From positions 1 to 28,030 of the forward strand of contig JAFDGP010000003.1 in assembly GCA_019309245.1 (NCBI GenBank): 28,030 bases of DNA. Direction: 5' to 3'. Source of the DNA: Deltaproteobacteria bacterium. Its GTDB lineage: Bacteria; Desulfobacterota; Desulfobacteria; Desulfobacterales; C00003060. The notes under the pieces were generated by a model, which saw nothing but the letters and a program-made list of their open reading frames with translations, was not told where the DNA came from and made no database searches. Below, piece after piece: positions 8,910-26,178 of this stretch (within the stretch, counting starts at the first letter, position 1; each line of letters opens with the position of its first letter). Position numbers and translations under genes: made by a program.

Positions 8910-10268
8910 ATGGAACGAACTTACGACATTTTGGTGATTGATGACGACGCGTTCATGCGGGATGCCTGTCATCAGGCGTTGTCCAGGAAAGGCCATACAA
9001 CCGCCTTGGCAAAAAGCGGCAGGGAGGGATTGGCCCTGCTGGAGGAGTCTGCGTATGACCTCGTGTTGCTGGATTTGAATCTGCCCCGAGAGGATGGGTT
9101 GTTTATCCTGGCGAAGATCAAGGACATTGACCCCGATGCCGTGGTGGTGATGATATCAGGTCGCGGTTCTATTGAGACAGCGGTTCAGGCGATCAAGCTG
9201 GGGGCCTTTGATTTTATTGCCAAACCGTTTACACCGGAAGAGCTCATCAATTTGGTCTACAGGGCTCTGAGGAACCGAAGGGCCACCCGGGTTGGAAAGG
9301 GGCGGCGGCGTTATGCAGTGCGGAGGTCCAAACCCGTCAAGATCATCAGTCAGAGCGCGGCCATGGAAAGAGTAAAGGAGATGGTGGAGATGGTCGCTCC
9401 TACCGACAGCACCGTCTTGCTGGAGGGGCCGAGCGGCACGGGAAAAGGACTTGTGGCCCGAAAGCTCCATGAATTGAGCCCTCGCCGCAGCCGACCGTTT
9501 GTGGCCGTGGACTGTGGTTCCCTGGTGAAGACCTTGTTTGAAAGCGAACTCTTTGGCCATGTCAAAGGGGCCTTTACCGGGGCGGACTCGACCCAACAGG
9601 GCAAATTTGAAATGGCACGGGGCGGGACCCTCTTTTTTGATGAGATATCTAATATCAACCTGGAAATCCAGGCCAAGCTTTTGAAAGCAGTTGAAGAGAA
9701 ACGGATTTCCAAAGTGGGGGATCATAAGGTTGTCGACGTGGATGTCCGGATTATCTCCGCGACAAACGGCAATCTCAAGAAGGCCATCTCCAAAGGGCTT
9801 TTTCGGGAAGACCTTTTCTTTCGTCTCAACGTGGTCTCCATTCATCTTCCCCCCCTAAGAGAGCGCGGAGAGGACATTCCGCTTCTGGCGGAACATTTCT
9901 TGAGAATTTCATGCAATGAGCAAGGAAAATCCATTGAAGGTTTTTCGCCGAACGCGATGAAAGCGCTTTGCCAGTACACCTGGCCGGGCAATGTTCGCGA
10001 ACTTGAGAACACAGTGGAACGCCTGGTGGTCTTTGCTCAAGAAGACGTCATATCGACGCGGGACCTGGTATACTCGAACACCGTGCTTTCACGCATTGTG
10101 GATTCGGAACCGATCCGCCTGGAAGAGATGGAGCGGGAGCATATCACCAAGGTTTTGGCCAGCGTGAATGGAAACAAGACCCAGGCGGCCCAGTTATTGG
10201 GTATCGACCGCAAGACCCTCCGGATCAAGGTCAAAAAATATGGCATTGAGGAAACATCTGCTGCATGA
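8910..10268 (+). CDS. sigma54-dependent response regulator (NtrC/AtoC/ZraR-like: REC-AAA+-Fis HTH)
   Basis: REC (IDDD, LLDLNLP, FIAKPF), Walker A GPSGTGKG, ESELFGHVKGAFTGA, FFDEI, FREDLFFRLNV and C-terminal NKTQAAQLLGIDRKTL. SD AGAGGA is present. Confidence 0.95.
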   Translation: MERTYDILVIDDDAFMRDACHQALSRKGHTTALAKSGREGLALLEESAYDLVLLDLNLPREDGLFILAKIKDIDPDAVVVMISGRGSIETAVQAIKLGAFDFIAKPFTPEELINLVYRALRNRRATRVGKGRRRYAVRRSKPVKIISQSAAMERVKEMVEMVAPTDSTVLLEGPSGTGKGLVARKLHELSPRRSRPFVAVDCGSLVKTLFESELFGHVKGAFTGADSTQQGKFEMARGGTLFFDEISNINLEIQAKLLKAVEEKRISKVGDHKVVDVDVRIISATNGNLKKAISKGLFREDLFFRLNVVSIHLPPLRERGEDIPLLAEHFLRISCNEQGKSIEGFSPNAMKALCQYTWPGNVRELENTVERLVVFAQEDVISTRDLVYSNTVLSRIVDSEPIRLEEMEREHITKVLASVNGNKTQAAQLLGIDRKTLRIKVKKYGIEETSAA

Positions 10269-12047: not shown

Positions 12048-12406
12048 CAGAGGCCTCCTTATTAGGAATTTTGACGTGTTTTCCGTCCGTCAATCGCGCA
12101 TCGCGGACAGCTTTTCCGCTTTCCGGATGTCCGTTGATCGGTGCTGACAATCAACATTGGCGTTTCGAATGGGGGCAAAAACACAGGCGTCCACTGAGGC
12201 TTTGCCGTGCCCCCAAAATGTCATCTTAAGCCCGTGACATGGCAGCCATTGTTACCAGAGTGGGTGGTTGGTGTCAAGGACGCTGGATGGCCCGGATGCA
12301 CTGGAGGGGCCGAGGTACCAGTGTCACAGGGGGTTGAATTTCGGGGTTGCTATGCAGCCTCTGGGCCGTGACGGCGTCACAGCGGGACCGAAGCAACGCC
12401 CTATAT

Positions 12407-12422
12407 TGGCACGAAATTGGCA
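12407..12422 (+). promoter_or_regulatory. Candidate sigma54 -24/-12 promoter upstream of the glycan operon
   Basis: TGGCACGAAATTGGCA: perfect TGGCACG, GC at correct spacing, one mismatch in the TTGC box. Confidence 0.55.
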
Positions 12423-12450: not shown

Positions 12451-12479
12451 TTGACAAAGAATATGGTATATGTTATGAG
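12451..12479 (+). promoter_or_regulatory. Candidate sigma70 promoter of the wHTH regulator/glycan operon
   Basis: Perfect TTGACA (12451-12456), 17 nt spacer, TG-T-TATGAG (extended -10, last base non-consensus). Confidence 0.5.
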
Positions 12480-12494
12480 TAAATAAACTACTCA
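12476..12494. promoter_or_regulatory. Inverted repeat TGAGTA-N7-TACTCA, candidate repressor operator
   Basis: Perfect 6-7-6 inverted repeat overlapping the -10 and predicted start site, 16 nt before the regulator ATG. Confidence 0.55.
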
Positions 12495-12510
12495 AGATAG
12501 GGTTTTTGTC

Positions 12511-13059
12511 ATGAACGATCTGCTCTCCGGACTTATTGCCTCCAAAACACGGATCAAACTGCTGACGAAGTTTTTTTTCAATCCTGAAACACGCTCCTAT
12601 CTGCGAGAGTTGGCCAAAGAATTCAACCTGTCAACCAATGCGGTGCGCGAAGAGCTCAATCAGCTGACCAAGACGCAACTTCTCAAAAGCGAACGCAACG
12701 GCCGACAGGTGCTCTACCAGGCCAATAAACAACATCCCTTGTTTCCGGAGCTCAAGTCGATGGTGGGGAAAGTCATGGGAATCGATCGCGTGATTGATGG
12801 GATCGTAAATCGGCTTGGAGATTTGGAACGGGCCTATCTGATTGACGACTATGCCCAGGGGAAGGATTCCGGCATCATCGACCTGCTGCTGGTAGGCAAT
12901 ATCGATCACTATCACCTCAACGATTTGACCAGGAAAACCGAGCGGTATATCCATCGAAAAATCAGATCCCTGGTGGTGAGCCGCGCCGAATATGATGCGT
13001 TGCTTCCACAACTGCGTAATCGGCCCCGGGTGCTGATCTGGGAGGCAGGAAAAGGTTAG
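12511..13059 (+). CDS. Winged-helix (ArsR-like) regulator fused to a degenerate minimal nucleotidyltransferase-like domain
   Basis: N-terminal KTRIKLL...YLRELAKEFNLSTNAVREELNQL...GRQVLYQAN (wHTH with wing). C-terminal AYLIDDYAQGKDSGIIDLLLVG follows the hG[GS]-x9-13-DhD nucleotidyltransferase pattern with substitutions. Confidence 0.8.
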   Translation: MNDLLSGLIASKTRIKLLTKFFFNPETRSYLRELAKEFNLSTNAVREELNQLTKTQLLKSERNGRQVLYQANKQHPLFPELKSMVGKVMGIDRVIDGIVNRLGDLERAYLIDDYAQGKDSGIIDLLLVGNIDHYHLNDLTRKTERYIHRKIRSLVVSRAEYDALLPQLRNRPRVLIWEAGKG

Positions 13060-13131
13060 GTTGGAAGGGGTCGGCGGCCGCCGAGCGTGGCAACGCAACT
13101 GGCTTGAGCAGGTATTAAACAGGAGAACGGT

Positions 13132-14145
13132 ATGGACATACACGGCAAAAAATTTCTCGTAATCGGGGGGGCAGGGTTGATCGGCTCTCACGTGGTGGAC
13201 GAACTGAGGGAAGAAGATGTGGCGGAGATCCGCATTTTTGACAATTTCACGCGGGGAAGGGCGGAGAATCTCAAGGATGCCTTAAGCGATGATCGGGTTA
13301 GAATATTTGAGTTGGGCGGTGAGTTGCTGCATCGGGATATCCTGAACGCGGCGATGGAGGGCATTGATGGGGTGTTTCATTTGGCTGCATTGTGGTTGCT
13401 GCACTGTCAGGACTTTCCTCGCTCTGCTTTTGAGGTCAATATTGGAGGGACCTTTAACGTGGTGGAGGCCATGGTCGCCAACGGTGTCAGACGACTGGTT
13501 TTCTCGTCTTCCGCCTCGGTGTATGGTGATGCCGTGGAAGAACCCATGACCGAGTCTCATCCATACAACAACACCAATTTCTACGGTGCGACAAAAATCG
13601 CGGGCGAGCATATTTGTAGATCCTTGTACCATCACTTCAAGGGTACGGACAGGCATTTCGACTACGTCGGATTGCGATACATGAATGTGTATGGTCCGCG
13701 TCAAGACTATCATGGTGCCTATATCGCGGTGATTATGAAGATTCTCGACCGGCTGGACGCGGGCCTTGCTCCGGTGGTCTACGGAGACGGATCCCAGGCC
13801 TATGATTTTGTTTATGTTCAAGACTGTGCCAGGGCCAATGTCTTGGCCATGCAGGCGCAGACCACTGATACCTTTTACAATGTGGGAACGGGCAAAAAGA
13901 CGACCATCAAAGAGCTGGCTGAGATGATTGTGGAGGTCAGTGGTTCGAAGTGTAAAATTCAGTATGAACCCGGCGGCCAGACCTTTGTGAAAAATCGGGT
14001 GGGTTGCCCCAAAAAGGCGGAACAAGAGATCGGCTTTAAGGCACAGACATCCTTGGAAGAAGGCCTCAAGCGCCTCATTGCCTGGCGAAATGCCCACAAG
14101 GCGGAGGTGGCGCAACGTCGGCACAGAACCAGAGGCCAGTGGTAA
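13132..14145 (+). CDS. NAD-dependent nucleotide-sugar epimerase/dehydratase (extended SDR)
   Basis: GGAGLIG, VFHLAA, SSSASVYG, YGATK (YxxxK), LRYMNVYGPRQ and DFVYVQDCA. SD AGGAG is present. Confidence 0.94.
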   Translation: MDIHGKKFLVIGGAGLIGSHVVDELREEDVAEIRIFDNFTRGRAENLKDALSDDRVRIFELGGELLHRDILNAAMEGIDGVFHLAALWLLHCQDFPRSAFEVNIGGTFNVVEAMVANGVRRLVFSSSASVYGDAVEEPMTESHPYNNTNFYGATKIAGEHICRSLYHHFKGTDRHFDYVGLRYMNVYGPRQDYHGAYIAVIMKILDRLDAGLAPVVYGDGSQAYDFVYVQDCARANVLAMQAQTTDTFYNVGTGKKTTIKELAEMIVEVSGSKCKIQYEPGGQTFVKNRVGCPKKAEQEIGFKAQTSLEEGLKRLIAWRNAHKAEVAQRRHRTRGQW

Positions 14146-14171
14146 GCCTGTGGTAGGGGAACCGTGATCGC

Positions 14172-15284
14172 ATGAAAAAAATACCGCTCATACGACCTTA
14201 TATTACACAAGAGGTCAAGCAGGCCGTGTGCGATGTGCTTGAAAGCGGCCATCTTACGGAAGGTCCGATGACACAGGCCCTGGAGCAGGCGTTTAGGGAC
14301 TACATCGGCTGTGGGTACGCCATCGCAGTGACCTCCTGCACCACGGGCCTTGAAACCGCGCTCAGGGCTATCGGGATCAGCCCCGGGGACGAAGTGATTG
14401 TCCCGGACTATACGTATCCGGCTACGGCTTGTGCGGTGAGAATTGTAGGGGCGACAGTGGTGATTGTAGATGTCGATCCTGAAACCATGTTGATTGACTA
14501 TGACGCTATTGAAGGGGCGATAACCGACCGGACCAAAGCCGTAATTCCGGTGTCGATTTTCGGAAACCCTCTGGACTATGACCGCTTGAACCGGATCAAG
14601 GAGCGATTCGGGATCATTATTCTGGAAGACGCGGCGTGTTCCATCGGTGCCCGATATCGCGGGGTGTGCGTTGGAAACCTGGCGGACATCTCGGTCTTTA
14701 GCCTGCACCCGAGAAAATTCATCACCACGGGCGAAGGCGGCATAATTACGACCAACAACAAGGCCTGGGCCGAGTGGATTCAGTCTTATAAACATTTTGG
14801 TATGGGAAAGGCCGATTCACGTTTGAAGGCGCAGTTCAAACGTATCGGCACCAATTACAAGCTCAGTGATATCCAGGCGGCCGTGGGATTGGTGCAGATG
14901 AGGCATATTGAGGCACTTCTGGAAACGCGCATCAGGCTGTCTGAACGATACCATGAATTCCTGGAAGGCAGCCCCGGAATTTCCATTTCCCGTGTCACAG
15001 CAGGCGGGAGGCACTCCAGGCAATCGTTCTGTGTTTTTGTGGGAAATCGAGACGGGGTCATGACAAGGCTCAGGGAACAGAACATTGAAGTTCAAATCGG
15101 CACATACAGCCTTTCGCGACAGGCGGCATTTTCTCCAAGCAGCGTTTGCCGAATCGTTGGAGACATGGCTGGCAGCCTCTGGGCCTTTGATCATTGTCTG
15201 ACCCTGCCATTGTTCGAAGGGCTGGCCGCGGAGGATCAACAATTTGTTGTTGCACGTCTTTTGGAGGCGATGGAAGCCGTGTGA
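14172..15284 (+). CDS. DegT/DnrJ/EryC1/StrS family nucleotide-sugar aminotransferase
   Basis: SCTTGLETAL, IGISPGDEVIVPDYTYPATA, EDAACSIG, FSLHPRKFITTGEGG (PLP Lys) and GTNYKLSDIQAAVG. Confidence 0.94.
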   Translation: MKKIPLIRPYITQEVKQAVCDVLESGHLTEGPMTQALEQAFRDYIGCGYAIAVTSCTTGLETALRAIGISPGDEVIVPDYTYPATACAVRIVGATVVIVDVDPETMLIDYDAIEGAITDRTKAVIPVSIFGNPLDYDRLNRIKERFGIIILEDAACSIGARYRGVCVGNLADISVFSLHPRKFITTGEGGIITTNNKAWAEWIQSYKHFGMGKADSRLKAQFKRIGTNYKLSDIQAAVGLVQMRHIEALLETRIRLSERYHEFLEGSPGISISRVTAGGRHSRQSFCVFVGNRDGVMTRLREQNIEVQIGTYSLSRQAAFSPSSVCRIVGDMAGSLWAFDHCLTLPLFEGLAAEDQQFVVARLLEAMEAV

Positions 15285-15393
15285 CGCAGGGCGGAAGCTT
15301 GCGAATTGGCTCCCGGACGATTCAGCTTAGGGCGGATGCGGTCTCTTGGACGACAGCTGTCGAATTGGTTCTTGTTTGAGGAAATGATAGCTC

Positions 15394-17319
15394 GTGTGCG
15401 GCATTTGCGGAATATTTAATCTCAACGGTGAGACGGCGTCTCCGGCGGTGCTTCGCCGGATGACCAATGCCATCGCACATCGTGGCCCGGACGGGGAAGG
15501 CTTTTTTTTCGATAGCTTCATTGGATTGGGACACCGCAGGCTTGCAGTGATTGATCTGACCAGAGCTGGCCATCAGCCAATGCTCTCACAAGACGGTCAA
15601 TACGCCTTGACCTATAATGGCGAGATTTACAACTTCCAGGAACTGAGAAAAGAGCTCGAGGACCTGGGATACCGTTTCCGATCCCGAACGGATAGCGAAG
15701 TTGTCCTGTACGCCTACGTTGCATGGGGACCGGAGTGCGTTGAACGCTTTAACGGCATGTTTGCATTTGCCCTTTGGGACAAGGCCCGGGTGGAACTGTT
15801 TGTTGCCAGAGACCGTTACGGCATTAAACCCTTGTACTATACCTTGTCCGGGCCAAGTTTTATATTCGCGTCCGAGCAAAAGGCCATCCTGGAGCACACG
15901 CGGGTATCGCGTGCGGTGGACCTGGAAGCGCTACTGGAATATTTCACCTTCCAGAATCTTTTTACCGACAGGACCCTGCTCAAAGGCATTCGGCTCTTCC
16001 CGGCCGGATGTTGGGCAAGAATTCCCCTGGGCAATTCGGGCACAGGGTCTGCTGCATTGAAGATCCATCGGTACTGGGACTTCGACTTCCGCGATCCTGA
16101 GCGTCCGGCCTCCGAGCGGGAGTACATCGAGGAACTTGACCGACTTTTTCAACAGGCCGTCAAGCGGCAATTGGTGAGCGATGTGGAGCTGGGATGTTAT
16201 CTGAGCGGGGGGATTGATTCTGGATCCATCACGGCCGTTGCATCCAGGGGGCTGCCGTATATTAAGACATTTACGTGCGGCTTTGACTTGCACTCCGCAT
16301 CGGGGCTGGAGTTGGGATTTGACGAGCGAAGAAAATCGGAACGGCTGTCCTATCTTTTTAAGACTGAACATTATGAAATTGTTTTAAAGGCCGGCGATAT
16401 GGAACGCGTTTTGCCTGAAGTGGCGTGGCACTTAGAAGAGCCTAGGGTTGGCCAAAGTTATCCAAACTATTACATCGCGCGTCTGGCCAGTAAATTTGTA
16501 AAAGTTATCCTGGCCGGGACGGGAGGAGATGAGCTCTTTGGGGGATATCCCTGGAGGTATTACAGAGCGACCGAGAGCGCTGGATTTGAAGACTATATCG
16601 ATAAACACTACAGATATTGGCAGCGGCTGATTCCAAACCGCATTCTACGTAAGGTATTTAAACCCGTCTGGAAACAAGTGGAGCATGTCTGGACAAGAGA
16701 TATCTTTCGGGATGTATTTCTGAAGTGCCCCCAGAAAATCACAAAGCCGGAAGATTATATTAACCAATCTTTGTATTTTGAAGCGAAGACTTTTCTCCAT
16801 GGCCTGCTGGTGGTCGATGACAAGCATAGTATGGCTCATGGGTTGGAGGCACGGGTCCCCTTTCTTGACAATGATCTTGTGGATTTTGCCATGCAGGTGC
16901 CCGTCAGGTTGAAACTGAAAAATCTTACAGATTTGATTCGTCTCAACGAAAATGAGCCCGGCGCGTATGGAAGCAGGAGAAACGAGAAGGCAAGAGATGG
17001 CAAGCTGGTTTTGCGAAAAGTCATGGAGCGCTATGTTCCACAAGAGATTGCCAGAGCCCAGAAGCAGGGGTTTTCGGCGCCTGACGCTTCCTGGTTTAAG
17101 GGCGAGAGTATCGAATATGTACGTAAGGAACTCATGACGGATGACGGTCCGATTTATGACTATCTGGATCGGGAGGCGGTCCGTGGAATCATAAATGATC
17201 ACTTAAGCGGGAAAAAAAATCGGCGCTTGGCAATTTGGTCATTTCTGAATTTTCAATGGTGGCTGAGAAGATTCATTTTGCAGTCTGACGTACAGAGCGA
17301 TTTGGCTTCATTTGGGTGA
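15394..17319 (+). CDS. asnB: Asparagine synthase-like glutamine amidotransferase (probably amidates a sugar carboxylate)
   Basis: GTG-TGC start gives the N-terminal Cys of an Ntn amidotransferase (CGICG). Also HRGPDG, GHRRLAVID, YNGEIYN, SDSEV-like TDSEV, RDRYGIKPLY, LSGGIDS, GTGGDELFGGY and EARVPFLD. Confidence 0.93.
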   Translation: MCGICGIFNLNGETASPAVLRRMTNAIAHRGPDGEGFFFDSFIGLGHRRLAVIDLTRAGHQPMLSQDGQYALTYNGEIYNFQELRKELEDLGYRFRSRTDSEVVLYAYVAWGPECVERFNGMFAFALWDKARVELFVARDRYGIKPLYYTLSGPSFIFASEQKAILEHTRVSRAVDLEALLEYFTFQNLFTDRTLLKGIRLFPAGCWARIPLGNSGTGSAALKIHRYWDFDFRDPERPASEREYIEELDRLFQQAVKRQLVSDVELGCYLSGGIDSGSITAVASRGLPYIKTFTCGFDLHSASGLELGFDERRKSERLSYLFKTEHYEIVLKAGDMERVLPEVAWHLEEPRVGQSYPNYYIARLASKFVKVILAGTGGDELFGGYPWRYYRATESAGFEDYIDKHYRYWQRLIPNRILRKVFKPVWKQVEHVWTRDIFRDVFLKCPQKITKPEDYINQSLYFEAKTFLHGLLVVDDKHSMAHGLEARVPFLDNDLVDFAMQVPVRLKLKNLTDLIRLNENEPGAYGSRRNEKARDGKLVLRKVMERYVPQEIARAQKQGFSAPDASWFKGESIEYVRKELMTDDGPIYDYLDREAVRGIINDHLSGKKNRRLAIWSFLNFQWWLRRFILQSDVQSDLASFG

Positions 17320-17378
17320 GAACAAATACAAATTACAGATATCTTGGTCGATAAATGGCTTTTTGCTCGGAGCGGCAT

Positions 17379-18092
17379 GTGAAGGTAGGATTTGTTTCGG
17401 ACGCTCATGGGAACCCGCATGGCCTTAAAGTGTGTTTGGAGCATCTGCGAAGATTGGGCGTTAAAGATGTCTATTTCCTCGGTGATGCCGTGGGGTATTT
17501 CCCTGATGCCCAGAGAACTATCGACCTGCTTGAGGCGGAATGTGTGGCCTGTCTGATGGGAAACCACGAGGCAATGCTTTTGGGGGACCTCCCTGTAGAG
17601 CCGGGACATGATAGGGTTGCAAAGATTACGGAGACACGAGAACAAATTGGAAGTTCCTATCTGGAAAAAATAAGATCTTGGGAGCGTTTCAAAAAAATCG
17701 AGTTAGATGGCAGGGATATACTTTGCGTTCATGGCAACCCTTGGGACCCTTTAAACGGCTATGTGTATCCAGACTCAGACATTCAAGGATTTTCAGAGAT
17801 GCCCTTTGACGCGTTTTTCCTCGGACATACGCATCGGCCGTTCATTCGCAAAGTGGGAGCATCCATAGTAACAAATGTGGGTTCATGTTCGTTACCGCGG
17901 GATCAGGGAAACCTGGCGTCTTGTAGTGTCTATGACAGCACTGAGGATACGGTACAGGTCTTAAGAGTACCGTTCGATAAAGATAAAATTATAAGGTTGT
18001 ACGGCAATTGGGTCAGCTCGGAGGTTAGAGACACGCTCCTACGACAAGCTGACAAAGAAACGACGGGAGATATTGTCGAGAAGTTGCCATGA
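17379..18092 (+). CDS. Calcineurin-like metallophosphoesterase
   Basis: All five metal motifs are present: SDAHGN, GDAVGY, GNHE, VHG, GHTH, plus NVGS. GTG 17379 has GGAG upstream; ATG 17355 is the alternative start. Confidence 0.88.
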   Translation: MKVGFVSDAHGNPHGLKVCLEHLRRLGVKDVYFLGDAVGYFPDAQRTIDLLEAECVACLMGNHEAMLLGDLPVEPGHDRVAKITETREQIGSSYLEKIRSWERFKKIELDGRDILCVHGNPWDPLNGYVYPDSDIQGFSEMPFDAFFLGHTHRPFIRKVGASIVTNVGSCSLPRDQGNLASCSVYDSTEDTVQVLRVPFDKDKIIRLYGNWVSSEVRDTLLRQADKETTGDIVEKLP

Positions 18093-19165
18093 GAACGAAT
18101 ATAGCTGTTATGGTTACAGGAATAGGTGGCGGCGGACATGGAGAGCAGATTTTGAAGGCGTTGCGCATGAGTCCGACTTCATATGAGATTGTCGGATGTG
18201 ATATGTCTCCGTTAAGCAAAGGCCTCATGGAGGTTGACCATGCCTATGTGGTGCCGCCGGCCTCTGATTCGGCGTATGTGCCGCGACTTCTTGATATCTG
18301 CGGGAAACATCACGTGAAGGCCGTTTTTCATGGCTCAGAAGCGGAACTTGTCGTCATGAGCAGGGAAAGAGATAGATTTCGGAAAGCGGGTATACTGCTT
18401 CCGATAAACCCAAAGCGGGTCATAGATCTGTGTATGGATAAATGGGAGACGGCGAAATTCTTGGTGCAGAATGGTTTTAATTGCCCAAAAACCGTCCGAG
18501 TAGTTAGCCGGGATGACCTGAAGGAAATCGAGTTTCTACCTGCTGTTTTAAAACCATCGACCGGCACAGGGGGGTCGTTTAATACCTTTTTGGCCCAGAC
18601 CCGCCGGGAATTGTTACTGCTCGGAGAATATTTATTAAATTACCAGAATAACTTTATCGTACAACAATACATGGGAAGGCACGATGCAGAGTACACGGTT
18701 GGTGTTTTACTTTCCATGGAGGGACAACTGATCAATTCGATTGCTGTGAAAAGAAACCTTGATGCCAGCTTGAGCGTCCGAATGAAGGTCAGGAATCTGA
18801 CAGGAGATTCAAGCCTGGGCTCGATTCTGGCGATCAGCAGTGGCATTTCGCAGGGAGAGATAAAGCGGTTTCCGGAGGTGACTTCTTTTTGCGAGAAAAT
18901 CGCGGTTCGTTTGGGATGTCGCGGGGCGGTTAATTTTCAGTGCCGGCTGGTCGACAAGACGCCGTACGTGTTTGAGATCAATCCCCGATTTTCCGGAACC
19001 ACCTCGCTCAGGGCAATGGTGGGTTACAATGAACCCGATATCTTGATTCGGATGCATGTGCTTGGGGAAAACCCGAAACGCTGGTTCCATTACAGGGATG
19101 GAGTAATTTTAAGAGGGTTGCAGGAGTCGTTTGTCGAGATTGGAGAGCAAGAACTTTTGAGATGA
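18089..19165 (+). CDS. ATP-grasp domain protein (CarB-like single grasp with N-terminal Rossmann-like domain)
   Basis: VTGIGGGG, CMDKWET, VLKPSTGTGGS, IVQQY, EYTV and FEINPRFSGT. ATGA overlap with the upstream gene. Confidence 0.9.
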   Translation: MRTNIAVMVTGIGGGGHGEQILKALRMSPTSYEIVGCDMSPLSKGLMEVDHAYVVPPASDSAYVPRLLDICGKHHVKAVFHGSEAELVVMSRERDRFRKAGILLPINPKRVIDLCMDKWETAKFLVQNGFNCPKTVRVVSRDDLKEIEFLPAVLKPSTGTGGSFNTFLAQTRRELLLLGEYLLNYQNNFIVQQYMGRHDAEYTVGVLLSMEGQLINSIAVKRNLDASLSVRMKVRNLTGDSSLGSILAISSGISQGEIKRFPEVTSFCEKIAVRLGCRGAVNFQCRLVDKTPYVFEINPRFSGTTSLRAMVGYNEPDILIRMHVLGENPKRWFHYRDGVILRGLQESFVEIGEQELLR

Positions 19166-20361
19166 TTAGACAGGGTGCCTTGGAAGATATAGAGATGGAG
19201 GCGTATGAATGTGCGGTTTGTGGATCAAGGGACCTGGAGCCTCTATATCCATCGGGCTATCAGGGAATGGGGGTCTGTTCCGATTTCAGGTTGATAAATG
19301 GCGTGAGAGTCGAAAACAGAATATGTCGTCAGTGTGGATTGATTTTCAACGCCGAGGGTATACGGGGCAATACGAAACGCTTTTATAACGCTACTTATAG
19401 CTTAATGCGATTTAAAGACGATGCCGCGATCAGACATTTTTCGGAAACGAGGCAGATTTCCCAGGCAGAGCAGACCCGCGATGTGTTTTTCAGGCTTTTG
19501 TTTCCAAAGAAAAAGGGCAGGCTCCTTGAAGTAGGGGCCGGCAAGGGAGATTTCTTGAGGTGTTGCCGCGAAGCGATCTCCGGGTGGCGCATTACCGTAT
19601 TGGAACCCGGGGAATCTTTTTCATACCTTGTTCACAAACTTAGAGGTGTCGAGGCTCATCGTAGCGATTATAAAGATTACGATATTGAAAAAGGCACCTA
19701 CGATATCATTGTTGCCCTGGGAGTTCTGGAGCATGTGGAGAACCCTCTTGATATGCTTCAATGGGTTCATAGAGGATTAAATGACGGTGGCGCCGTGTTC
19801 CTGCGTGTTCCAAACTTCGAGAAGAACCCGAATGATCTGTTTTGCGTGGACCATTTGTCAAAACTTACGGTAGCCACCTTACATGGGCTTGCGGAGAAAG
19901 CGGGGTTTGCGGTTATGGACGTCGAAAGTGCAGGGGTGCCTGTTTTTGCAGTACTGAAAAAAGAAAAAAGAGTTATGCCCAACGACGATGAGCACACCTA
20001 CAACACAAACATGAAAATCGCGGGTGCGAATGCTGTTTTTGCCGAAAGGGCCATCAAAGCGATTCTTAAAGCGAGAGAGACCGCCGCTCGAAAGAGGGAG
20101 CCTTTCGGCATTTTTGGCCTGGCAATGTCTGGAATTTTTGCACCGATTTTTAGTGGATTCAGCCCATCCGATATTGCGGCTTATATAGACGAAAACAAGA
20201 GTTTCTGGGGGTTGAGAATCCATGGCAGGCCTGTGGAAGGGCTGGGCGCGATCGAAGAAAAGAAGATTCGCCATATTGCCCTTACGATTAGCCCCGTATA
20301 TGTGAAGCAGGTCAAAGAAAAACTGAGTAGGTTTCGGGGATTAACTGTGTATGTTCCATAG
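19162..20361 (+). CDS. Class I SAM-dependent methyltransferase with Zn-binding N-terminus and Rossmann-like C-terminal domain (NDP-sugar C/O-methyltransferase-like)
   Basis: CAVC...CRQC, motif I LLEVGAGKG, VLEHVENP, C-terminal IFGLAMSG...AYIDEN...GRPV. ATGA overlap with the upstream gene. Confidence 0.85.
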   Translation: MIRQGALEDIEMEAYECAVCGSRDLEPLYPSGYQGMGVCSDFRLINGVRVENRICRQCGLIFNAEGIRGNTKRFYNATYSLMRFKDDAAIRHFSETRQISQAEQTRDVFFRLLFPKKKGRLLEVGAGKGDFLRCCREAISGWRITVLEPGESFSYLVHKLRGVEAHRSDYKDYDIEKGTYDIIVALGVLEHVENPLDMLQWVHRGLNDGGAVFLRVPNFEKNPNDLFCVDHLSKLTVATLHGLAEKAGFAVMDVESAGVPVFAVLKKEKRVMPNDDEHTYNTNMKIAGANAVFAERAIKAILKARETAARKREPFGIFGLAMSGIFAPIFSGFSPSDIAAYIDENKSFWGLRIHGRPVEGLGAIEEKKIRHIALTISPVYVKQVKEKLSRFRGLTVYVP

Positions 20362-20407
20362 GTCGAACGGAGAGAGACAACTCCGAGGGGAAAAGCCGTC
20401 AAATAAG

Positions 20408-21106
20408 ATGATTGTATTAAGCTTCGACAGTGATTGGGCGCCTCAATTTGTAATAGATTACGTCGCGGGAAAGCTGGAGGCAGCCGGTGTTAGCGCAACG
20501 TTCTTTCTGACATCACCTTATGTTATGCATGATCGTGCCGATATTGAAATAGGAATTCATCCGAATTTTATGTCTGATTCTACCCAGGGCAATACCGAAA
20601 ATGAGGTTCTGACCACGTTAAAACGTTGGCATCCCAGTGCCCTGGGATCAAGGTCCCACCGATTCTATTGGCACAGTAATCTCTCGGACAGGTTGGCTGA
20701 CAGTGGGATCTTATATGACAGCTCCATATTCATGCCTTATCAGTCCTTTTTGATGCCTTTTAAGGTGGGCCGCATAATGCGAATTCCTGTTTGGTGGAGT
20801 GATGGCTTACATCTGCTCAGTGAAATGCCGTTTAGGGTCTCGGAGCTGCCGAACTTGGAAAAGCCCGGACTGAAGGTTTTTAATTTTCATCCTATTCATA
20901 TTTACCTGAACACAAGAAGCCCAAACGGATATCGCGAAAAGGTAAAAATGATCAATCCCCTTTTTGAGGCGGACCCGGAAGCGCTTTTAAGGCTTAAAGA
21001 AAACGGATTCGGCATCGGGACTCTATTTGCCGATCTTCTGGAATATGTGGCCAGACAAGATGATAACTCAATGAGGCTAAAGGAGATATGCCGAAGCGGC
21101 TGGTGA
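20408..21106 (+). CDS. Polysaccharide deacetylase-like protein (NodB/WbmS-like)
   Basis: LSFDSDWAP, SATFFLT, EIGIHPNF, GSRSH, YDSS and FNFHPIHIYLN. ATG 20408 is preferred over the track start at 20351, which overlaps the previous gene. Confidence 0.82.
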   Translation: MIVLSFDSDWAPQFVIDYVAGKLEAAGVSATFFLTSPYVMHDRADIEIGIHPNFMSDSTQGNTENEVLTTLKRWHPSALGSRSHRFYWHSNLSDRLADSGILYDSSIFMPYQSFLMPFKVGRIMRIPVWWSDGLHLLSEMPFRVSELPNLEKPGLKVFNFHPIHIYLNTRSPNGYREKVKMINPLFEADPEALLRLKENGFGIGTLFADLLEYVARQDDNSMRLKEICRSGW

Positions 21107-21118
21107 CAAGAGGACGTT

Positions 21119-22228
21119 ATGTTTGATATTGGCGAGGAAAGACGGATCAATAAGGCCATACTTGAATACATTGATTATTATTCTTTGAATCTTGAGCATC
21201 TGGTTGTGTATACCGAAGTCGGCTCCGGTTATTATCAATTCACGCCCATGATTTGTGTCATTGCAGGGGCCCAGAAGGTCTATGCAGTGACAAGAGATTC
21301 CAATTGGGGGAAGGCCGATGAGATCAAAAAGGCCACCTATGACATCATAAACCGATGGGACCTTCGTGATTGCGTCGAAGTAGTAGAGGAAAAAAAGGCG
21401 AAAGATGTTTCAAAATGCGACATTATAACGAACCTGGGTTTTGTGAGGCCTATCGATTCGGAAATGATTTCGTGGATGAAAGCGACTGCGGTGATTCCAT
21501 TGATGTGGGAAGCATGGGAATTCAGACCCAACGAGATCGACATGTCGGCGTGCAAGAAAAGAGGAATTCTTGTCCTGGGAACAGATGAGCACAAAAACAG
21601 CTTTATCAAATATGCGGGCTATGTTGTTTGGAAGCTTCTCTTTGAAAGTAACATTGAGATTTTCAAGAATAGGTTTTTGGTCATGAGTTCGGATCCCGTA
21701 GCCAGAGTGATTAATGAGCTGTTTTACAATAACGGGATTGATTTCATGTGGACGTCTTTTCACGAAAATATACAAGGAAAATACAGGCCGTTCCATATTG
21801 ATCGTCATGATCGGAGCACGCTGTTGGACTTTATTTCAAGGTGCGACGCGGTGATCTGTGATGAAAAAGTATTCGATCGGCCCCTTATCCACTCTCGCGG
21901 CCTCATAACGCCTGAGGACCTGAAGGAAGCCAATGATTCGATTGTTGTTATTGTTAGAAGTGGGGTGATTGACCACGAAGGACTAAGGCGGTGCGGAATC
22001 CGAGTCTATCCCGAAACACAAGTACCTTTTGGATATTCCACAACGTGTTCATATGCTCTAGGGCCACGACCTGTCATTGAGCTCCATGTCGCAGGTTTGA
22101 AAGTCGGTGAAGCGATGGCCCGTGCTCGGTTGGCCGGACTTGGTGTGGTGGAAGCCGCACGCCAGGCAAGGCAACAATCGCTCGCGCAGGACTTTGAAGG
22201 AGATCTGGCATGGATAAAAGACCTCTGA
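21119..22228 (+). CDS. Hypothetical protein, partly resembling a 2-hydroxyacid-dehydrogenase substrate-binding/Rossmann fold
   Basis: 369 aa ORF tightly packed in the operon. DIITNLGFVRPID...IDMSACKKRGILVLGT recalls the 'DL.AA..RGI.V.N' segment of D-2-hydroxyacid dehydrogenases. There is no confident family call. Confidence 0.75.
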   Translation: MFDIGEERRINKAILEYIDYYSLNLEHLVVYTEVGSGYYQFTPMICVIAGAQKVYAVTRDSNWGKADEIKKATYDIINRWDLRDCVEVVEEKKAKDVSKCDIITNLGFVRPIDSEMISWMKATAVIPLMWEAWEFRPNEIDMSACKKRGILVLGTDEHKNSFIKYAGYVVWKLLFESNIEIFKNRFLVMSSDPVARVINELFYNNGIDFMWTSFHENIQGKYRPFHIDRHDRSTLLDFISRCDAVICDEKVFDRPLIHSRGLITPEDLKEANDSIVVIVRSGVIDHEGLRRCGIRVYPETQVPFGYSTTCSYALGPRPVIELHVAGLKVGEAMARARLAGLGVVEAARQARQQSLAQDFEGDLAWIKDL

Positions 22229-22986
22229 TCCTGCCGGACTTTTTGATCATCGGCTCCGGCCGTTGCGGGACTTCTTTCCTTTATGAATGTTTGAAACAAC
22301 ACCCCGAGATCTACCTGAAAGATTCCAAGACTCCCGAACCACATTTTTTTCTGAGAGACAGTGAATACGAAAAAGGGCTAGCCTACTATTCAGAGAAATA
22401 CTTTTCCAGATGGCGTGGAGAAAAAAAAGTGGGAGAGGCCTCGGTAAACTATCTGTTTTTTGAGCGTGCTGCGGCGCGAGCACACCGTGACATCCCGGAT
22501 GTGAAACTGATTTGCATGGTCAGAAACCCGATTGACAGGATCTTTTCGGCCTACTGTCGATCCGTTGAAACGGGCTGGGAAGATTTGAGCTTCGAGCGTG
22601 CCCTGGACAAGGAACAGGAGCGGACCCAAAACCCACCGGACGAATACCACCGGCAATTCGAGCCCAGGGCCTATACGAAAAAGGGATTCTATCTCCGCCA
22701 TATCGAAATGTGGTTGAACTATTTCGATCGAAGCCGGTTGTTCGTAGGTGTTTTTGAGGAGATGGTCCGTTCCCCAATGGCCGTGATAAAGGAAGTCTTT
22801 CGCTTCTTGCAGGTGGATGAGGATTTTGTGCCGATTTTCCCGCGTCGAAAGGTGAACGCATCGGCCCTGCGTGATGAAATCAAAATGAATCCTGAGACCA
22901 GACGGGCTCTGAAAACCATGTTTGAGGCTGAGAACAAGAGATTGGCCAAATTCCTCGGGCGTTCCCTGGATATCTGGGAAAACTGA
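22210..22986 (+). CDS. PAPS-dependent sulfotransferase (heparan-sulfate-sulfotransferase-like bacterial family)
   Basis: PDFLIIGSGRCGTSFL (5'-PSB loop), KTPEPHFF, GEASVNY, RNPIDRIFSAY (3'-PB) and KGFY. Confidence 0.9.
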   Translation: MDKRPLILPDFLIIGSGRCGTSFLYECLKQHPEIYLKDSKTPEPHFFLRDSEYEKGLAYYSEKYFSRWRGEKKVGEASVNYLFFERAAARAHRDIPDVKLICMVRNPIDRIFSAYCRSVETGWEDLSFERALDKEQERTQNPPDEYHRQFEPRAYTKKGFYLRHIEMWLNYFDRSRLFVGVFEEMVRSPMAVIKEVFRFLQVDEDFVPIFPRRKVNASALRDEIKMNPETRRALKTMFEAENKRLAKFLGRSLDIWEN

Positions 22987-23074
22987 AAACGCGTATTGTT
23001 CTCAATGCGTAAGCCGCAACTTCAAATGGTTTTCTTAAGAGGGTAAACAGTGCTGATTGGGTGGGTTTTAGTCC

Positions 23075-24622
23075 ATGGTATTTGAAATAGCAGCAATAAT
23101 GGGGTTGGCGTTTTGCACACGGTTTTTATTCCTGTGTTCCGAAACATCGGACTACTATGTGCACCTGTGGCTTATCAAGCTTTTCAAGCAAGGAATTTCT
23201 CTAAGAAAAAAGGAGGTCAAAAACGCACTAAACAAAGGGATTATAGGGGCACCACCACTTCCTTATTGTGTTATTGCAAAATTTCCGGAGAGATACTGGA
23301 TTCCCATCGGACTCATTGGAAATATCGTCTATGATGTGGTGACTACATTGGCTTTTTACGTGATGTGCAGGGCGATTCTGGGCAGTGCATCACAAGATGT
23401 TCTCGGATGCAGTGCAGCCTTTGTCACCACATTGCTTTATACTACTACCCCGATCCTGCACCCCACAACTGCACGGCTCAAAACAATCGGGGCCAGAACA
23501 CTGGGGAACCTTTTTTGTTTTCTGTATTTCACCTGCCTGGGATATTTCATGATTGCCGGTGACGGCAGGACGCTGATAGGATGCGGGGTGTTCGGCCTGC
23601 TCATTGTATTGTCTTCCAAGTTTGCGCTTCAGGTGCTGGTGTTTCTGTCGCTTGGGTTGTCCGCGTTTTATTGGAGCGTTTGGCCGATATTGGTGTGCAT
23701 GGCCGTGCTATTGACTGGTGTCCTGATCGTGCCCCTGGGGGTATGGGAGTACCTGAAGACAAGACTGTATCACTTCAAATGGTACTGCAAAAAACTTCCG
23801 GGAAGAACTATTGATGACAGGAACTCTTTTCGTATCCTTTTGGCTCTTCCCCGGCTTTTTTTGACAAATCCGGCCCGGAGCATTCGTTTCGTGTTTGACA
23901 AATGCACGCCGGTGATATTGCTCTATTCGGTGCCTGTGTTGCCGTTTGTCTTGTACTGGGCATGCTTTTCACCTACAGATGTTCGCATCACACAAAGCCC
24001 CGTGCTCTATTTTTGCTTGGCGATCACGCTAACGGCTCTCGCCGTGTTCGTGCTCACATCCACAAGGCCGTTCCTGTTTCTGGGGCAAGCGGAAAGATAT
24101 TTTGAATATGCACTTCCGGCTGCCATGATCATTTTTTCGAGTGTGTGCATCAACAGCGGATACATTGCATTAATGGTATATATGGGCGTTTTCAACATCG
24201 TGTTTGTGTTGCTGGGCTTTATTTACAGCAATCATCGGGCATATGCAGCAAAGTTGGCACGGGAGCACGAAGAGTCGTTTGAGATGTTAATCGAATACCT
24301 CAAGACATGCGGGTTGCACAACATCGCTACAGTTCCCACAAAACTCAGCAACAAGCTGGCTACATATCTACCGCAAGATTACAGGTTTTACTTCTACAAT
24401 ATCCATGAAAAAGGACGTGGATTGAACCATATCCTGGAAAATCATATCGCCCATCATCTGTTCCATCCGGATCTGAAAAGGATCGGGAAAAAATTCCAGA
24501 TAGAGCTCGTCGTCGTCATGAAGGAAGCCCTGGAGTTGTACCCGATCTACGGCTATCAAAAGCCTTTTGGGGGGTATGAAAAGCGATACGAAAACGACCG
24601 TTATGTGGTTTTTGGAACCTGA
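23075..24622 (+). CDS. Polytopic membrane protein with soluble C-terminal domain, GT-C-like
   Basis: Many hydrophobic segments in residues 1-385 and a polar C-terminal ~130 aa. Acidic first loop (SETSDYYVH) and a late ERYFEYALP motif. The functional call is inference. Confidence 0.7.
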   Translation: MVFEIAAIMGLAFCTRFLFLCSETSDYYVHLWLIKLFKQGISLRKKEVKNALNKGIIGAPPLPYCVIAKFPERYWIPIGLIGNIVYDVVTTLAFYVMCRAILGSASQDVLGCSAAFVTTLLYTTTPILHPTTARLKTIGARTLGNLFCFLYFTCLGYFMIAGDGRTLIGCGVFGLLIVLSSKFALQVLVFLSLGLSAFYWSVWPILVCMAVLLTGVLIVPLGVWEYLKTRLYHFKWYCKKLPGRTIDDRNSFRILLALPRLFLTNPARSIRFVFDKCTPVILLYSVPVLPFVLYWACFSPTDVRITQSPVLYFCLAITLTALAVFVLTSTRPFLFLGQAERYFEYALPAAMIIFSSVCINSGYIALMVYMGVFNIVFVLLGFIYSNHRAYAAKLAREHEESFEMLIEYLKTCGLHNIATVPTKLSNKLATYLPQDYRFYFYNIHEKGRGLNHILENHIAHHLFHPDLKRIGKKFQIELVVVMKEALELYPIYGYQKPFGGYEKRYENDRYVVFGT

Positions 24623-24739
24623 CGACATGATGGCCTTTCGGGTCTTAGACACCGCTTTTGAAACAATGATGTGGGAGCAGAACACGGAAAGTCTTGGTGT
24701 TGGGACGATTCCGAGGATGGAACGGGATATTTAGCTGTA

Positions 24740-26176
24740 ATGATGTCAAAAAAGAGGCTCGCATATCTTGGTGGAATCTATTCGATCGGCTCATTGTTTG
24801 AGAACAGCCTTGCGTTTTTTTTCATCCCCATCTACACGGCCTATCTTGGTACTACGGATTATGGGATTATCGGCCTGATGTCAGTGGCTGTGGGGTTGAT
24901 GTCAAAATTAATCGCTCCTCCGGTCATCAGCGGGTTTTCCCGACACTATCATGCCCCGGAATATATGGAGAAAAAGGGTCTTGTCTTGTTCAACAGCTTC
25001 TTGTTTTTGGTTGCTGGAGCGCTTTTTCTTGCCATCGTTCTTTATCAGGCCAAAGGCTCGGTGAGTGCGATTGTTCTGGACGATCCTGCTCTTGAACATA
25101 TTGTTGAGACCTATGCAGCGATCCTGTTCTTCTTGCCCCTTTCAGAGTTTATGCTGGCCCTGTTGAGGCTGGAGGAACGGGCGGGATTGTTTGTTGGAAT
25201 CTCGTGGCTAGCGCTCATTTACGGGCAACTGGCCGGCCTTGGGTTCACGGTCTTGTGTGTTTTTCCCGTATTGTGGCGTCGTTGCGTGCCAAGGCTTTCA
25301 TTGATGGTTTTAGCGCCTTTACTCCGGTACGGTTACCCGATGATCCTGCAAGGATTTGCAGTCCTGCTTATTCAGAGCGGTGACCGATATGTACTCAGAA
25401 TGTTTTCCAGTGTAGCCGTTGTCGGGTTGTATAGTTTTGGGTACAAGTTTGCCGGTGTGATGAACATTGTCATGGTCGCACCTCTTAAATACGCCCTCCA
25501 ACCGATCGTTTTAAAGCAGGAAGCAACGCCGGCCAGGCTCAGGGCGTTTGTCAGCACCAGCTGCACCTATTGTTACCTGGCGGGAACGCTATTGTGGCTG
25601 GCGGTTACGCTGTTTGGAAAGGATGCCCTGAATCTCATGGCCAGGTCTGCCGAGTTTCGCAAAGCCTGGGTTGTTGTGCCGATCATTGCCTTTTGTCTTT
25701 TGCAACACGGCATGGGAAATTTCTTCAACTGGGGCCTCACCATGGCAAAAAAACCCTACCATATCAGCGTAAATGTGGCAATCGCAGCTGGGGTCAACAT
25801 TGCGTTAAATTTCGTTCTGGTTCCCGTTTTGGGAATCATTGGGGCCGCAGTCGCAACACTGATATCATATGTGATCTGGAACGGATTGAAGATTCACTAT
25901 TCTGCGAAATTCTACGATTTGCATTTTGAAATCGGACGCATTTTACATATCACGCTGATTGGTCTCTCATTGTATGCCCTTTCCATGGTGGCTGCGTCCA
26001 CCGCGTCGTCTTTGTTGAATATCCTGGTGAGGATCGTCATTATCTTGGCCTATTTGCCGGTGTGTTTCCTTACTGGTTTTTTTTCTGTCGAGGAAAAAGC
26101 GTATTTCCGAGAGTTCGCAGAATTGGTGCGGCGCTGCGGGTTGAAGCAGGCCATTGTCAAACATCAAGGCCTCTGA
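24740..26176 (+). CDS. Wzx-like oligosaccharide flippase (polysaccharide biosynthesis / MOP family)
   Basis: GGIYSIGS...FFFIPIYTAYLGTTDYG, LLRYGYPM, SGDRYVL, VGLYSFGYKF and NIALNFVLVPVLGIIGAAVATLISY. ATG 24740 is preferred over track GTG 24671. Confidence 0.9.
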   Translation: MMSKKRLAYLGGIYSIGSLFENSLAFFFIPIYTAYLGTTDYGIIGLMSVAVGLMSKLIAPPVISGFSRHYHAPEYMEKKGLVLFNSFLFLVAGALFLAIVLYQAKGSVSAIVLDDPALEHIVETYAAILFFLPLSEFMLALLRLEERAGLFVGISWLALIYGQLAGLGFTVLCVFPVLWRRCVPRLSLMVLAPLLRYGYPMILQGFAVLLIQSGDRYVLRMFSSVAVVGLYSFGYKFAGVMNIVMVAPLKYALQPIVLKQEATPARLRAFVSTSCTYCYLAGTLLWLAVTLFGKDALNLMARSAEFRKAWVVVPIIAFCLLQHGMGNFFNWGLTMAKKPYHISVNVAIAAGVNIALNFVLVPVLGIIGAAVATLISYVIWNGLKIHYSAKFYDLHFEIGRILHITLIGLSLYALSMVAASTASSLLNILVRIVIILAYLPVCFLTGFFSVEEKAYFREFAELVRRCGLKQAIVKHQGL

Positions 26177-26178
26177 AA

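Follow-up and report, generated by a model that had tools for sequence, protein, structure and literature searches.

A regulator with an apparently dead nucleotidyltransferase domain and a conserved candidate operator at the head of glycan loci

The stretch of DNA considered here (termed the window) comprises the first 28,030 nt of contig JAFDGP010000003.1 in assembly GCA_019309245.1, which derives from a deltaproteobacterium of the order Desulfobacterales. An open reading frame (ORF) at positions 12511 to 13059 of the forward strand encodes a 182-amino-acid protein (P0001) that joins a winged helix-turn-helix (wHTH) domain to a domain resembling a minimal nucleotidyltransferase (MNT), and the gene stands at the head of a row of glycan genes. 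In the reading that we favour, with a probability of roughly 0.7, this regulator is a domesticated antitoxin that has lost its HEPN partner and whose nucleotidyltransferase (NTase) site is dead, and it would repress locally the glycan operon that its own gene heads. An earlier note on this DNA had described the fused domains, the lost catalytic signatures, the palindrome at the regulator's own promoter and the glycan genes, and these observations stand. Its interpretation, that the protein uses a dead enzyme pocket to read a nucleoside triphosphate (NTP) or nucleoside diphosphate (NDP) sugar pool and thereby gates the glycan pathway, is supported in part. The two folds, the catalytic loss, the ancestry of the protein, the conservation, position and uniqueness of its site, and the association with glycan loci were each computed, and all conclusions on the regulator rest entirely on computation.

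Architecture and ancestry of the regulator

The amino-terminal half of the protein is an ArsR/SmtB-like wHTH domain by NCBIfam and Foldseek matches (residues ~5–75, encoded at 12523–12735 on the forward strand), with its recognition helix at about residues 42–54. The ArsR/SmtB-type matches all fall under curated cut-offs: the NCBIfam HTH_metalloreg match has an E-value of 2.5e-8 and lies below its cut-off, and the NF033788 score is 33.6 bits against a cut-off of 55; the winged-helix fold itself matches. An AlphaFold2 model was built from 37 diverse homologues (pLDDT 94.2, pTM 0.84), and Foldseek matched its residues ~5–96 to SqrR, HlyU, CzrA and SmtB. The recognition helix follows the consensus S-T-N-x-x-R-x-E-L-N-R-L, in which E48 and L49 are invariant throughout the family. 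The regulator has the winged-helix fold of the ArsR/SmtB repressors (SmtB, CzrA, SqrR and HlyU), and like them a palindromic site over its promoter, but it differs from them in its scores under the family cut-offs, in containing no cysteine at all, and in carrying an MNT extension instead of the α5 dimer helix. In the model, linker helices and the MNT domain take the place of the α5 region. As the protein has no cysteine, it has no Cys-based site for sensing metals or persulphides, and on the grounds of the missing cysteines and the replaced α5 region we rejected the reading as a metal-sensing ArsR protein.

The carboxy-terminal domain (residues ~100–178, encoded at 12808–13044 on the forward strand) was identified by Foldseek and by profile alignment. 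Residues 86–177 of the model match the archaeal MNT protein MJ0604 with a TM score by hit of 0.75 and an rmsd of 2.6 Å, and further matches were obtained to the putative NTase 2rff and to chains of the MntA antitoxin. A profile of the regulator family recovers 2rff (E 8e-6) and, more weakly, MntA (E 0.015) from sequence alone. The fusion of a wHTH to an MNT-like domain that had been proposed from the letters of the window is thus borne out by the comparison with MNT structures that the earlier note had asked for. The Pfam models NTP_transf_2 and Polbeta do not match the regulator even at E ≤ 10; P0221, a relative with intact motifs, carries both matches. The family is large, with 5423 homologues at E ≤ 0.001 after clustering at 90% and 3343 representatives after clustering at 50%, and source annotations call its members only 'winged helix-turn-helix' or 'ArsR family' regulators.

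The residues expected of an NTase active site are missing. Two segments are of interest, YLIDDYAQGKDSGIIDLL (residues 109–126) and RKIRSLVV (residues 149–156). In the profile alignment to the solved MNTs 2rff and MntA, the position of the G-S motif falls on D112-D113; the hG[GS] motif is absent, and the family consensus at this spot is G-D. The D-x-D position falls on I122-I123-D124, and its first residue is non-acidic, mostly hydrophobic, in 92 of the 94 full-length cluster representatives that were surveyed for motifs. The Asp that supplies the third carboxylate in the VDL/VDY strand of MntA and 2rff corresponds to R152, within R149-K-I-R152, and the REIN of HEPN-linked relatives likewise aligns with K150-I151-R152, so that this strand bears two conserved basic residues, K150 and R152. 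The replacement of G[GS] by DD, the reading of DxD as I-I-D and the want of an acidic residue in RKIRSLVV had each been noticed by eye, and each is reproduced by the alignment. Only two of the 94 representatives keep both GS and DxD. By these comparisons all three catalytic signatures have been lost from the regulator, and its NTase site is predicted to be dead.

The likely source of the protein is a toxin–antitoxin module. The PADLOC model for PDC-M05A (PDLC04368) matches residues 5–164 of the regulator with an E-value of 3.4e-28, and P0221, which has a HEPN gene directly downstream, matches PDC-M05A with an E-value of 2e-57. PDC-M05 consists of a nucleotidyltransferase and a HEPN protein in a toxin–antitoxin-like layout, with an antiviral role that is unconfirmed (PMC12988326). 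Eight distant paralogues in sister genomes, 20–34% identical to the regulator, all read G-S ... S-D-(I/V)-D, and each is followed by an ORF of 90–196 amino acids; four of these eight ORFs are HEPN proteins by Pfam, and the other four gave no HEPN match in the same scan. HEPN genes were seen only beside motif-intact relatives and not beside this regulator. In a maximum-likelihood tree a single branch with SH-aLRT support of 100 parts 36 dead from 9 intact sequences, groups that were defined by motif columns included in the alignment. The intact relatives also have palindromes upstream, with short arms containing GTA and TAC around an A/T-rich 5 nt spacer, often in two copies, and together with their HEPN genes they look like autoregulated toxin–antitoxin pairs of the PDC-M05 type.

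Motif-intact wHTH–MNT genes are located at L014, L016, L017, L018, L023, L026 and L028 in the sister genomes and at L117, and HEPN genes are detectable downstream at L014, L016, L017, L028 and L117. TGTATGG-ACAAA-CCATACA is one example of the palindromes upstream of such genes.

The regulator is homologous to PDC-M05A over its full length and shares its wHTH–MNT architecture, and the palindromes of the intact relatives have a like layout. It differs in having no HEPN partner and no GS, DxD or third carboxylate, and in heading glycan loci, whereas PDC-M05A occurs in mobile two-gene modules. Homology is weaker, at the level of profiles, to MntA of the Shewanella type VII HepT–MntA pair (PDB 5yep, 6m6w and 7bxo), to 2rff and to MJ0604, which have the same minimal NTase fold. 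MntA lacks the wHTH domain and, with GS-X10-DxD, is active in AMPylation, whereas the regulator reads DD, I-I-D and K-I-R at the corresponding places. Taken together, the profile and motif comparisons indicate that the regulator family descends from the wHTH–MNT antitoxins of MNT–HEPN pairs. Most simply, an antitoxin that bound DNA would have shed both its toxin partner and its enzymatic activity and survived as a regulator, in which case the architecture of its operator was probably inherited as well.

The same homology raises the possibility that the protein is still a working toxin–antitoxin or defence component of the PDC-M05A type with a HEPN partner elsewhere. The significant match to the PDC-M05A model would agree with this, and the assembly, at 87%, is incomplete. 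We nevertheless give this explanation hardly any credence and rejected it: the neighbours of the gene encode a TrpB-like enzyme and an epimerase rather than a HEPN protein, all three catalytic motifs are gone, the dead clade is set apart from the HEPN-linked clade in the tree, and at every one of about 100 loci examined the regulator is followed by other genes, mostly for glycans. The earlier note had named an active toxin–antitoxin component as one of the outcomes that would overturn its proposal, and neither a HEPN neighbour nor a catalytic motif was found.

Promoter and operator

Directly upstream of the regulator gene, the forward strand reads as a sigma-70-type promoter with a perfect −35 hexamer, TTGACA (12451–12456), and an extended −10 element (12471–12479) made up of TG (12471–12472), one further base and the hexamer TATGAG (12474–12479). 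The spacer between the two hexamers is 17 nt, and TATGAG overlaps the left arm of a 10-5-10 palindrome, TTATGAGTAA-ATAAA-CTACTCAAGA, at 12473–12497, which we take as the candidate operator. Its core is an exact 6-7-6 inverted repeat, TGAGTA-N7-TACTCA (12476–12494, with arms at 12476–12481 and 12489–12494). Such repeats are common in the window, where 11 pairs with 6 bp arms occur within 291 nt, and the palindrome is therefore weak evidence when taken from this window alone.

Comparison between genomes is far more telling. Twelve orthologue loci belong to other families within the order; in these the promoter and palindrome are conserved, while the rest of the intergenic DNA is not. We then have a set of 80 further orthologue loci, from named Desulfobacterales, Desulfatiglandales, Syntrophales, strain NaphS2 (L090, with a 75% identical orthologue) and others, whose proteins are 74–83% identical. 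Upstream of the regulator gene, GAGTA-N7-TACTC is exact at 63 of the 80 and present with at most one mismatch at 77, while the rest of these loci, 729 kb in all, holds one exact and nine near matches. The site ends 13–17 nt before the start codon, most often 15, and TTGACA or a close variant lies at an unchanged distance from it. Over 77 aligned loci the extended −10 region, TGTTATGAG, is nearly invariant, and the family consensus of the operator is the 10-5-10 palindrome TTATGAGTAG-AAWAA-CTACTCATAA, followed by AAGG. As the symmetry of the arms runs past the −10 hexamer, this conservation is not merely that of a promoter. The repeat that had been reported over the −10 element of a TTGACA promoter is accordingly present and conserved across genomes, and the comparison puts it far beyond chance.

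The site is also nearly private to the regulator. It occurs once in its own genome, which is 87% complete. Among 41 related genomes the 12-base core was found seven times, six of them at the regulator's own promoter, and not once in those genomes that have no homologue; a reversed control pattern gave seven scattered matches.

The same core reaches a second phylum. Bacteroidota-type homologues, from sources named Bacteroidetes, Rikenellaceae and Bacteroidales, are only ~45% identical to the regulator, and 19 of the 101 genomes sampled from one class have a single copy. No more than 200 nt upstream of these genes, 15 of 17 loci carry the core, mostly as TTGAGTA-N7-TACTCAA, against a background of seven near matches in 185 kb. 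A core shared across phyla fits the conserved recognition helix with its invariant E48 and L49. Whether homologues carry a similar palindrome had been put forward as a check, and in both groups they do. At five Bacteroidota-type loci the left arm and spacer read TAnnTTTG, which we take to be the Bacteroidetes −7 promoter element. If so, the operator would overlap the core promoter in either phylum, although the two differ in promoter grammar.

Two further features of these loci deserve mention. At L141, L145, L146, L151 and L153, all of Bacteroidota type, the operator lies 50–100 nt upstream of the start codon and is accompanied by a conserved leader motif, approximately GACTGACGTGGCGAAGC, followed by Y-R-TG. 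A search of this leader with Rfam returned no credible family; the motif might be part of a structured leader or a further site for a protein. One contig labelled 'Bacteroidales bacterium' (L088) carries a Desulfobacterota-type orthologue, 77% identical, with a promoter and operator in the Desulfobacterota style, which may reflect mis-binning or recent transfer.

From this arrangement we infer DNA binding, dimerisation, repression and co-transcription as follows. The regulator, most likely as a dimer, would bind the 10-5-10 palindrome through its ArsR-like winged helix. Since the site covers the extended −10 element, the expected transcription start and the DNA to about +15, bound protein would block RNA polymerase, and the outcome would be negative autoregulation, with repression of the regulator's own synthesis and of the 12 glycan genes predicted to be co-transcribed with it.

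Two other explanations of the site were weighed. In one, the regulator is an activator that recruits or remodels RNA polymerase at the weak −10 element TATGAG. The imperfection of this hexamer would suit an activated promoter, as would a sigma-54-type box upstream (described below), which suggests that more than one input reaches the region. A site that runs from −10 to about +15 of a promoter with a 17 nt spacer and a perfect −35 hexamer is, by contrast, in the classical position for a repressor, and the Bacteroidota-type sites likewise overlap the core promoter or abut the start codon. We consider activation unlikely. In the other explanation, the palindrome is an RNA hairpin in the 5′ leader that controls stability or translation rather than a DNA operator. 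Its right arm does abut the Shine–Dalgarno sequence, with a constant distance of 15 nt to the start codon, and both arms would be present in any transcript that began at the sigma-54 box upstream. Transcripts from the sigma-70 promoter would lack the left arm, however, as it overlaps the −10 element; at all three loci with a GAGCA variant (L076, L079 and L101) the stem is broken by a C opposite an A; and the occurrence of the site is strictly tied to that of a DNA-binding protein, the recognition helix of which is conserved across phyla. For these reasons the hairpin is very improbable, and we rejected it.

Several considerations weigh against autorepression by a domesticated antitoxin. The −10 hexamer lacks the usual final T, and a consensus promoter scan did not call the promoter. 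The conservation of the left arm may derive in part from promoter function and not from protein binding. Repression is deduced from the position of the operator, and the operon from the spacing of its genes. A search for RNA reads from this stretch returned a single DNA run, which holds 7% of its words. The genome is an 87% complete metagenome-assembled genome, so that a second site or a HEPN partner may sit on a missing contig. The definition of the dead and intact groups by columns used to build the tree counts on the same side.

A possible second promoter precedes the first. The forward strand at 12407–12422 carries TGGCAC-N5-TGGCA, an exact match to the sigma-54-type −24/−12 pattern TGGCAC-N5-TKGCW, ~45 nt upstream of the −35 hexamer. 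A similar box lies 90–98 nt before the start codon at six of the 80 orthologue loci (L035, L041, L042, L051, L075 and L083), against a background of 11 matches in 1.45 Mb, which suggests dual promoters in one sub-lineage. The operator is downstream of the box, and bound regulator would therefore also obstruct transcription initiated at the box. Upstream of the box, a pattern search found the palindrome TGAC-GGC-GTCA (12369–12379, forward strand), a tentative site for an enhancer-binding protein. TGAC-N3-GTCA occurs only twice in the window, here and at 1187–1197, each time upstream of a sigma-54-like box (that of acs at 1305 and that of the regulator operon at 12407), although at least two matches were obtained in 6 of 100 shuffles and the second site is unusually near its box (28 nt). 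The NtrC/AtoC-type activator encoded at 8910–10268 might serve both of these candidate promoters. The divergent intergenic region also contains, at 12231–12383, several half-sites of the GTGACA/TGTCAC type and 9 nt inverted repeats (12231/12322 and 12365/12375).

Glycan loci and the role of the former active site

The regulator gene is the first of 13 co-directional ORFs (12511–27225) separated by gaps of no more than 109 nt, in agreement with the 13-gene row that had been read from the window. The 12 genes behind it (13132–27225, forward strand) were assigned by Pfam and NCBIfam matches. They encode a short-chain dehydrogenase/reductase (SDR) epimerase, a DegT aminotransferase, an AsnB-type amidotransferase, a (metallo)phosphoesterase, an ATP-grasp enzyme and a methyltransferase, as well as a WbmS-like protein, an unassigned 369-amino-acid protein, two sulphotransferases, a 515-amino-acid membrane protein and a Wzx-like flippase. 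The epimerase gene is the immediate downstream neighbour of the regulator gene, and the second sulphotransferase gene closes the row after the flippase. On the other side, an intergenic region of 463 nt is shared with a divergent gene for a TrpB-like pyridoxal phosphate (PLP) enzyme. Consensus scans found no terminator between the regulator and epimerase genes and no terminator-like signals above chance within the glycan row, and the spacing makes a single operon of 13 genes plausible. An Rfam scan of the window found no family.

Base composition changes along the row. The G+C content falls from ~55% to ~47% across 16–27 kb of the window; between 16000 and 27000 it ranges from 45 to 50% compared with ~55% in the flanks, and it is 56% again at the convergent GT4 gene (27244–28029). 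Such a dip is typical for exchanged glycan cassettes.

To survey the association more widely, the first two ORFs behind the regulator at the 80 orthologue loci (127 proteins) were scanned against Pfam. They include 17 NDP-sugar epimerases or dehydratases, 15 ABC-2 transporters of the Wzm type, 9 Wzt proteins (counted as ABC ATPases with the Wzt C-terminal domain) and 7 Wzx-type flippases, with nucleotidyltransferases, GFO/IDH/MocA oxidoreductases, DegT proteins and cytidylyltransferases among the other families. About half of the 127 are recognisable glycan proteins, and the loci differ from one another in content. On the upstream side, the closest gene is usually unrelated (GAF–ANTAR proteins, dehydroquinase, sigma-54 activators and proteases), and in about one-quarter of cases it encodes a GT2, PMT or epimerase protein. 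With upstream neighbours mostly unrelated, the regulator marks the upstream edge of a variable glycan block in this lineage. On two long contigs it is flanked by GT2/PMT/TPR genes on one side and by a Wzx or Wzm/Wzt block on the other. The Bacteroidota-type homologues lie inside capsule-type loci, with genes for Wza, Wzc and NusG-like proteins upstream and for epimerases, UDP-glucose dehydrogenase, Wzm/Wzt and NeuB downstream. The expectation that homologues would be found at polysaccharide loci thus holds in at least two phyla.

Other genes adjoin the regulator among the 80 loci. They include PIN-domain genes (seven) and AbiEii-type toxin genes (three downstream and four upstream), and the margin of the variable block seems to be a place where mobile toxin–antitoxin genes accumulate. 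On the contigs with P0061 (L029–L032), pilS–pilR, a pilin gene and PMT/TPR/GT2 genes immediately precede the regulator and its glycan block, which hints at pilin or protein glycosylation in some relatives. The glycan block of the present window is not within a pilus locus.

These contexts bear on what the former active site may do. One possibility, which we hold tentatively, is that the regulator is a one-component metabolite sensor whose dead pocket binds an NTP, an NDP-sugar, 3′-phosphoadenosine-5′-phosphosulphate (PAPS) or a second messenger and thereby releases or locks operator binding. The most conserved positions of the C-terminal domain (D113, A115, G117, D119, D124, G129, E144, K150, I151 and R152) make up the loop and strand of the former active site, where K150 and R152, on the strand of the third carboxylate, could contact phosphate without a metal. 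Among close orthologues, moreover, this domain (82%) and the DNA-binding domain (83%) are conserved to the same degree. The Asp/Lys/Arg cluster could hold a phosphate-bearing ligand without a metal, but it could equally well form a network of salt bridges that fills the lost metal site, and the action of a small phosphate-bearing ligand at this place is possible rather than probable.

The nature of any such ligand is constrained by the variety of the loci. Near-identical pockets, in orthologues that are ~80% identical, head chemically different pathways, and a pathway-specific NDP-sugar is for this reason an unlikely ligand. The ligand, if there is one, should be a generic metabolite and not a product of the locus; the invariant pocket would accord better with such a metabolite or with the lack of any ligand. 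With a little less confidence again, we can imagine that the metal-free site reads a universal nucleotide-type signal, such as an NTP, UDP-N-acetylglucosamine, 3′-phosphoadenosine-5′-phosphate or PAPS, or a second messenger, and that through GAGTA-N7-TACTC it couples hypervariable glycan loci to this signal in Desulfobacterota, Bacteroidota and other phyla.

The other possibility, to which we assign a similarly low probability, is a homeostatic autorepressor that needs no ligand and buffers expression of the operon, with the MNT-like domain retained only as a scaffold for dimerisation and stability or as a surface on which a partner docks. Antitoxins autoregulate through sites of this kind without small ligands, and the intact relatives have similar palindromes. 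No conserved partner gene was found beside the regulator among the neighbours at the 80 loci. A scaffold would not obviously require the residues of the former active site to be its best-conserved part, however, and ~80% identity across orders is high for a domain with such a role.

Relation to known regulators and significance

Detailed knowledge of how O-antigen and capsule-type loci are controlled is confined to a few model groups, for example RfaH/ops in enterobacteria and UpxY/UpxZ in Bacteroides. These are NusG-like antiterminators that act on the elongation of long polysaccharide operons. The present system resembles them in that a conserved regulatory gene or element starts a hypervariable glycan locus; it differs in that the regulator is a wHTH protein with a predicted operator on the core promoter. 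Some Bacteroidota-type loci hold both the regulator and NusG-like genes.

Sensor domains derived from enzymes are found in NrtR (wHTH plus a Nudix-like domain), PurR of Bacillus subtilis (wHTH plus a PRTase-like domain) and the ROK repressors. In these proteins, as in the regulator, a DNA-binding domain is fused to a catalytically impaired enzyme fold. The fold of the regulator is instead that of a pol-beta-type NTase, and it comes from a toxin–antitoxin module and not from a metabolic enzyme. A literature search found no characterised member of the family, which agrees with the statement of the earlier note that no regulator of this type was known to it, and the parts of the comparative-genomics literature on HEPN–MNT systems seen through a keyword search contain no wHTH–MNT regulator at glycan loci.

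The autorepressor reading describes a compact control unit, in which one small protein and one 25 bp site lead variable glycan loci. This unit recurs in hundreds of species of sulphate reducers and syntrophs, and the same DNA core is present in Bacteroidota. The regulator and its operator provide a sequence flag for the boundaries of glycan loci in metagenomes, and the family offers a clear case in which the antitoxin of a toxin–antitoxin pair was domesticated as a housekeeping regulator. Should the dead pocket prove to bind a ligand, the pol-beta NTase fold would join the short list of enzyme folds recycled as sensors of transcription factors. On the evidence of its distribution and position, the regulator and operator together would constitute an unstudied but widespread switch for surface-glycan loci.

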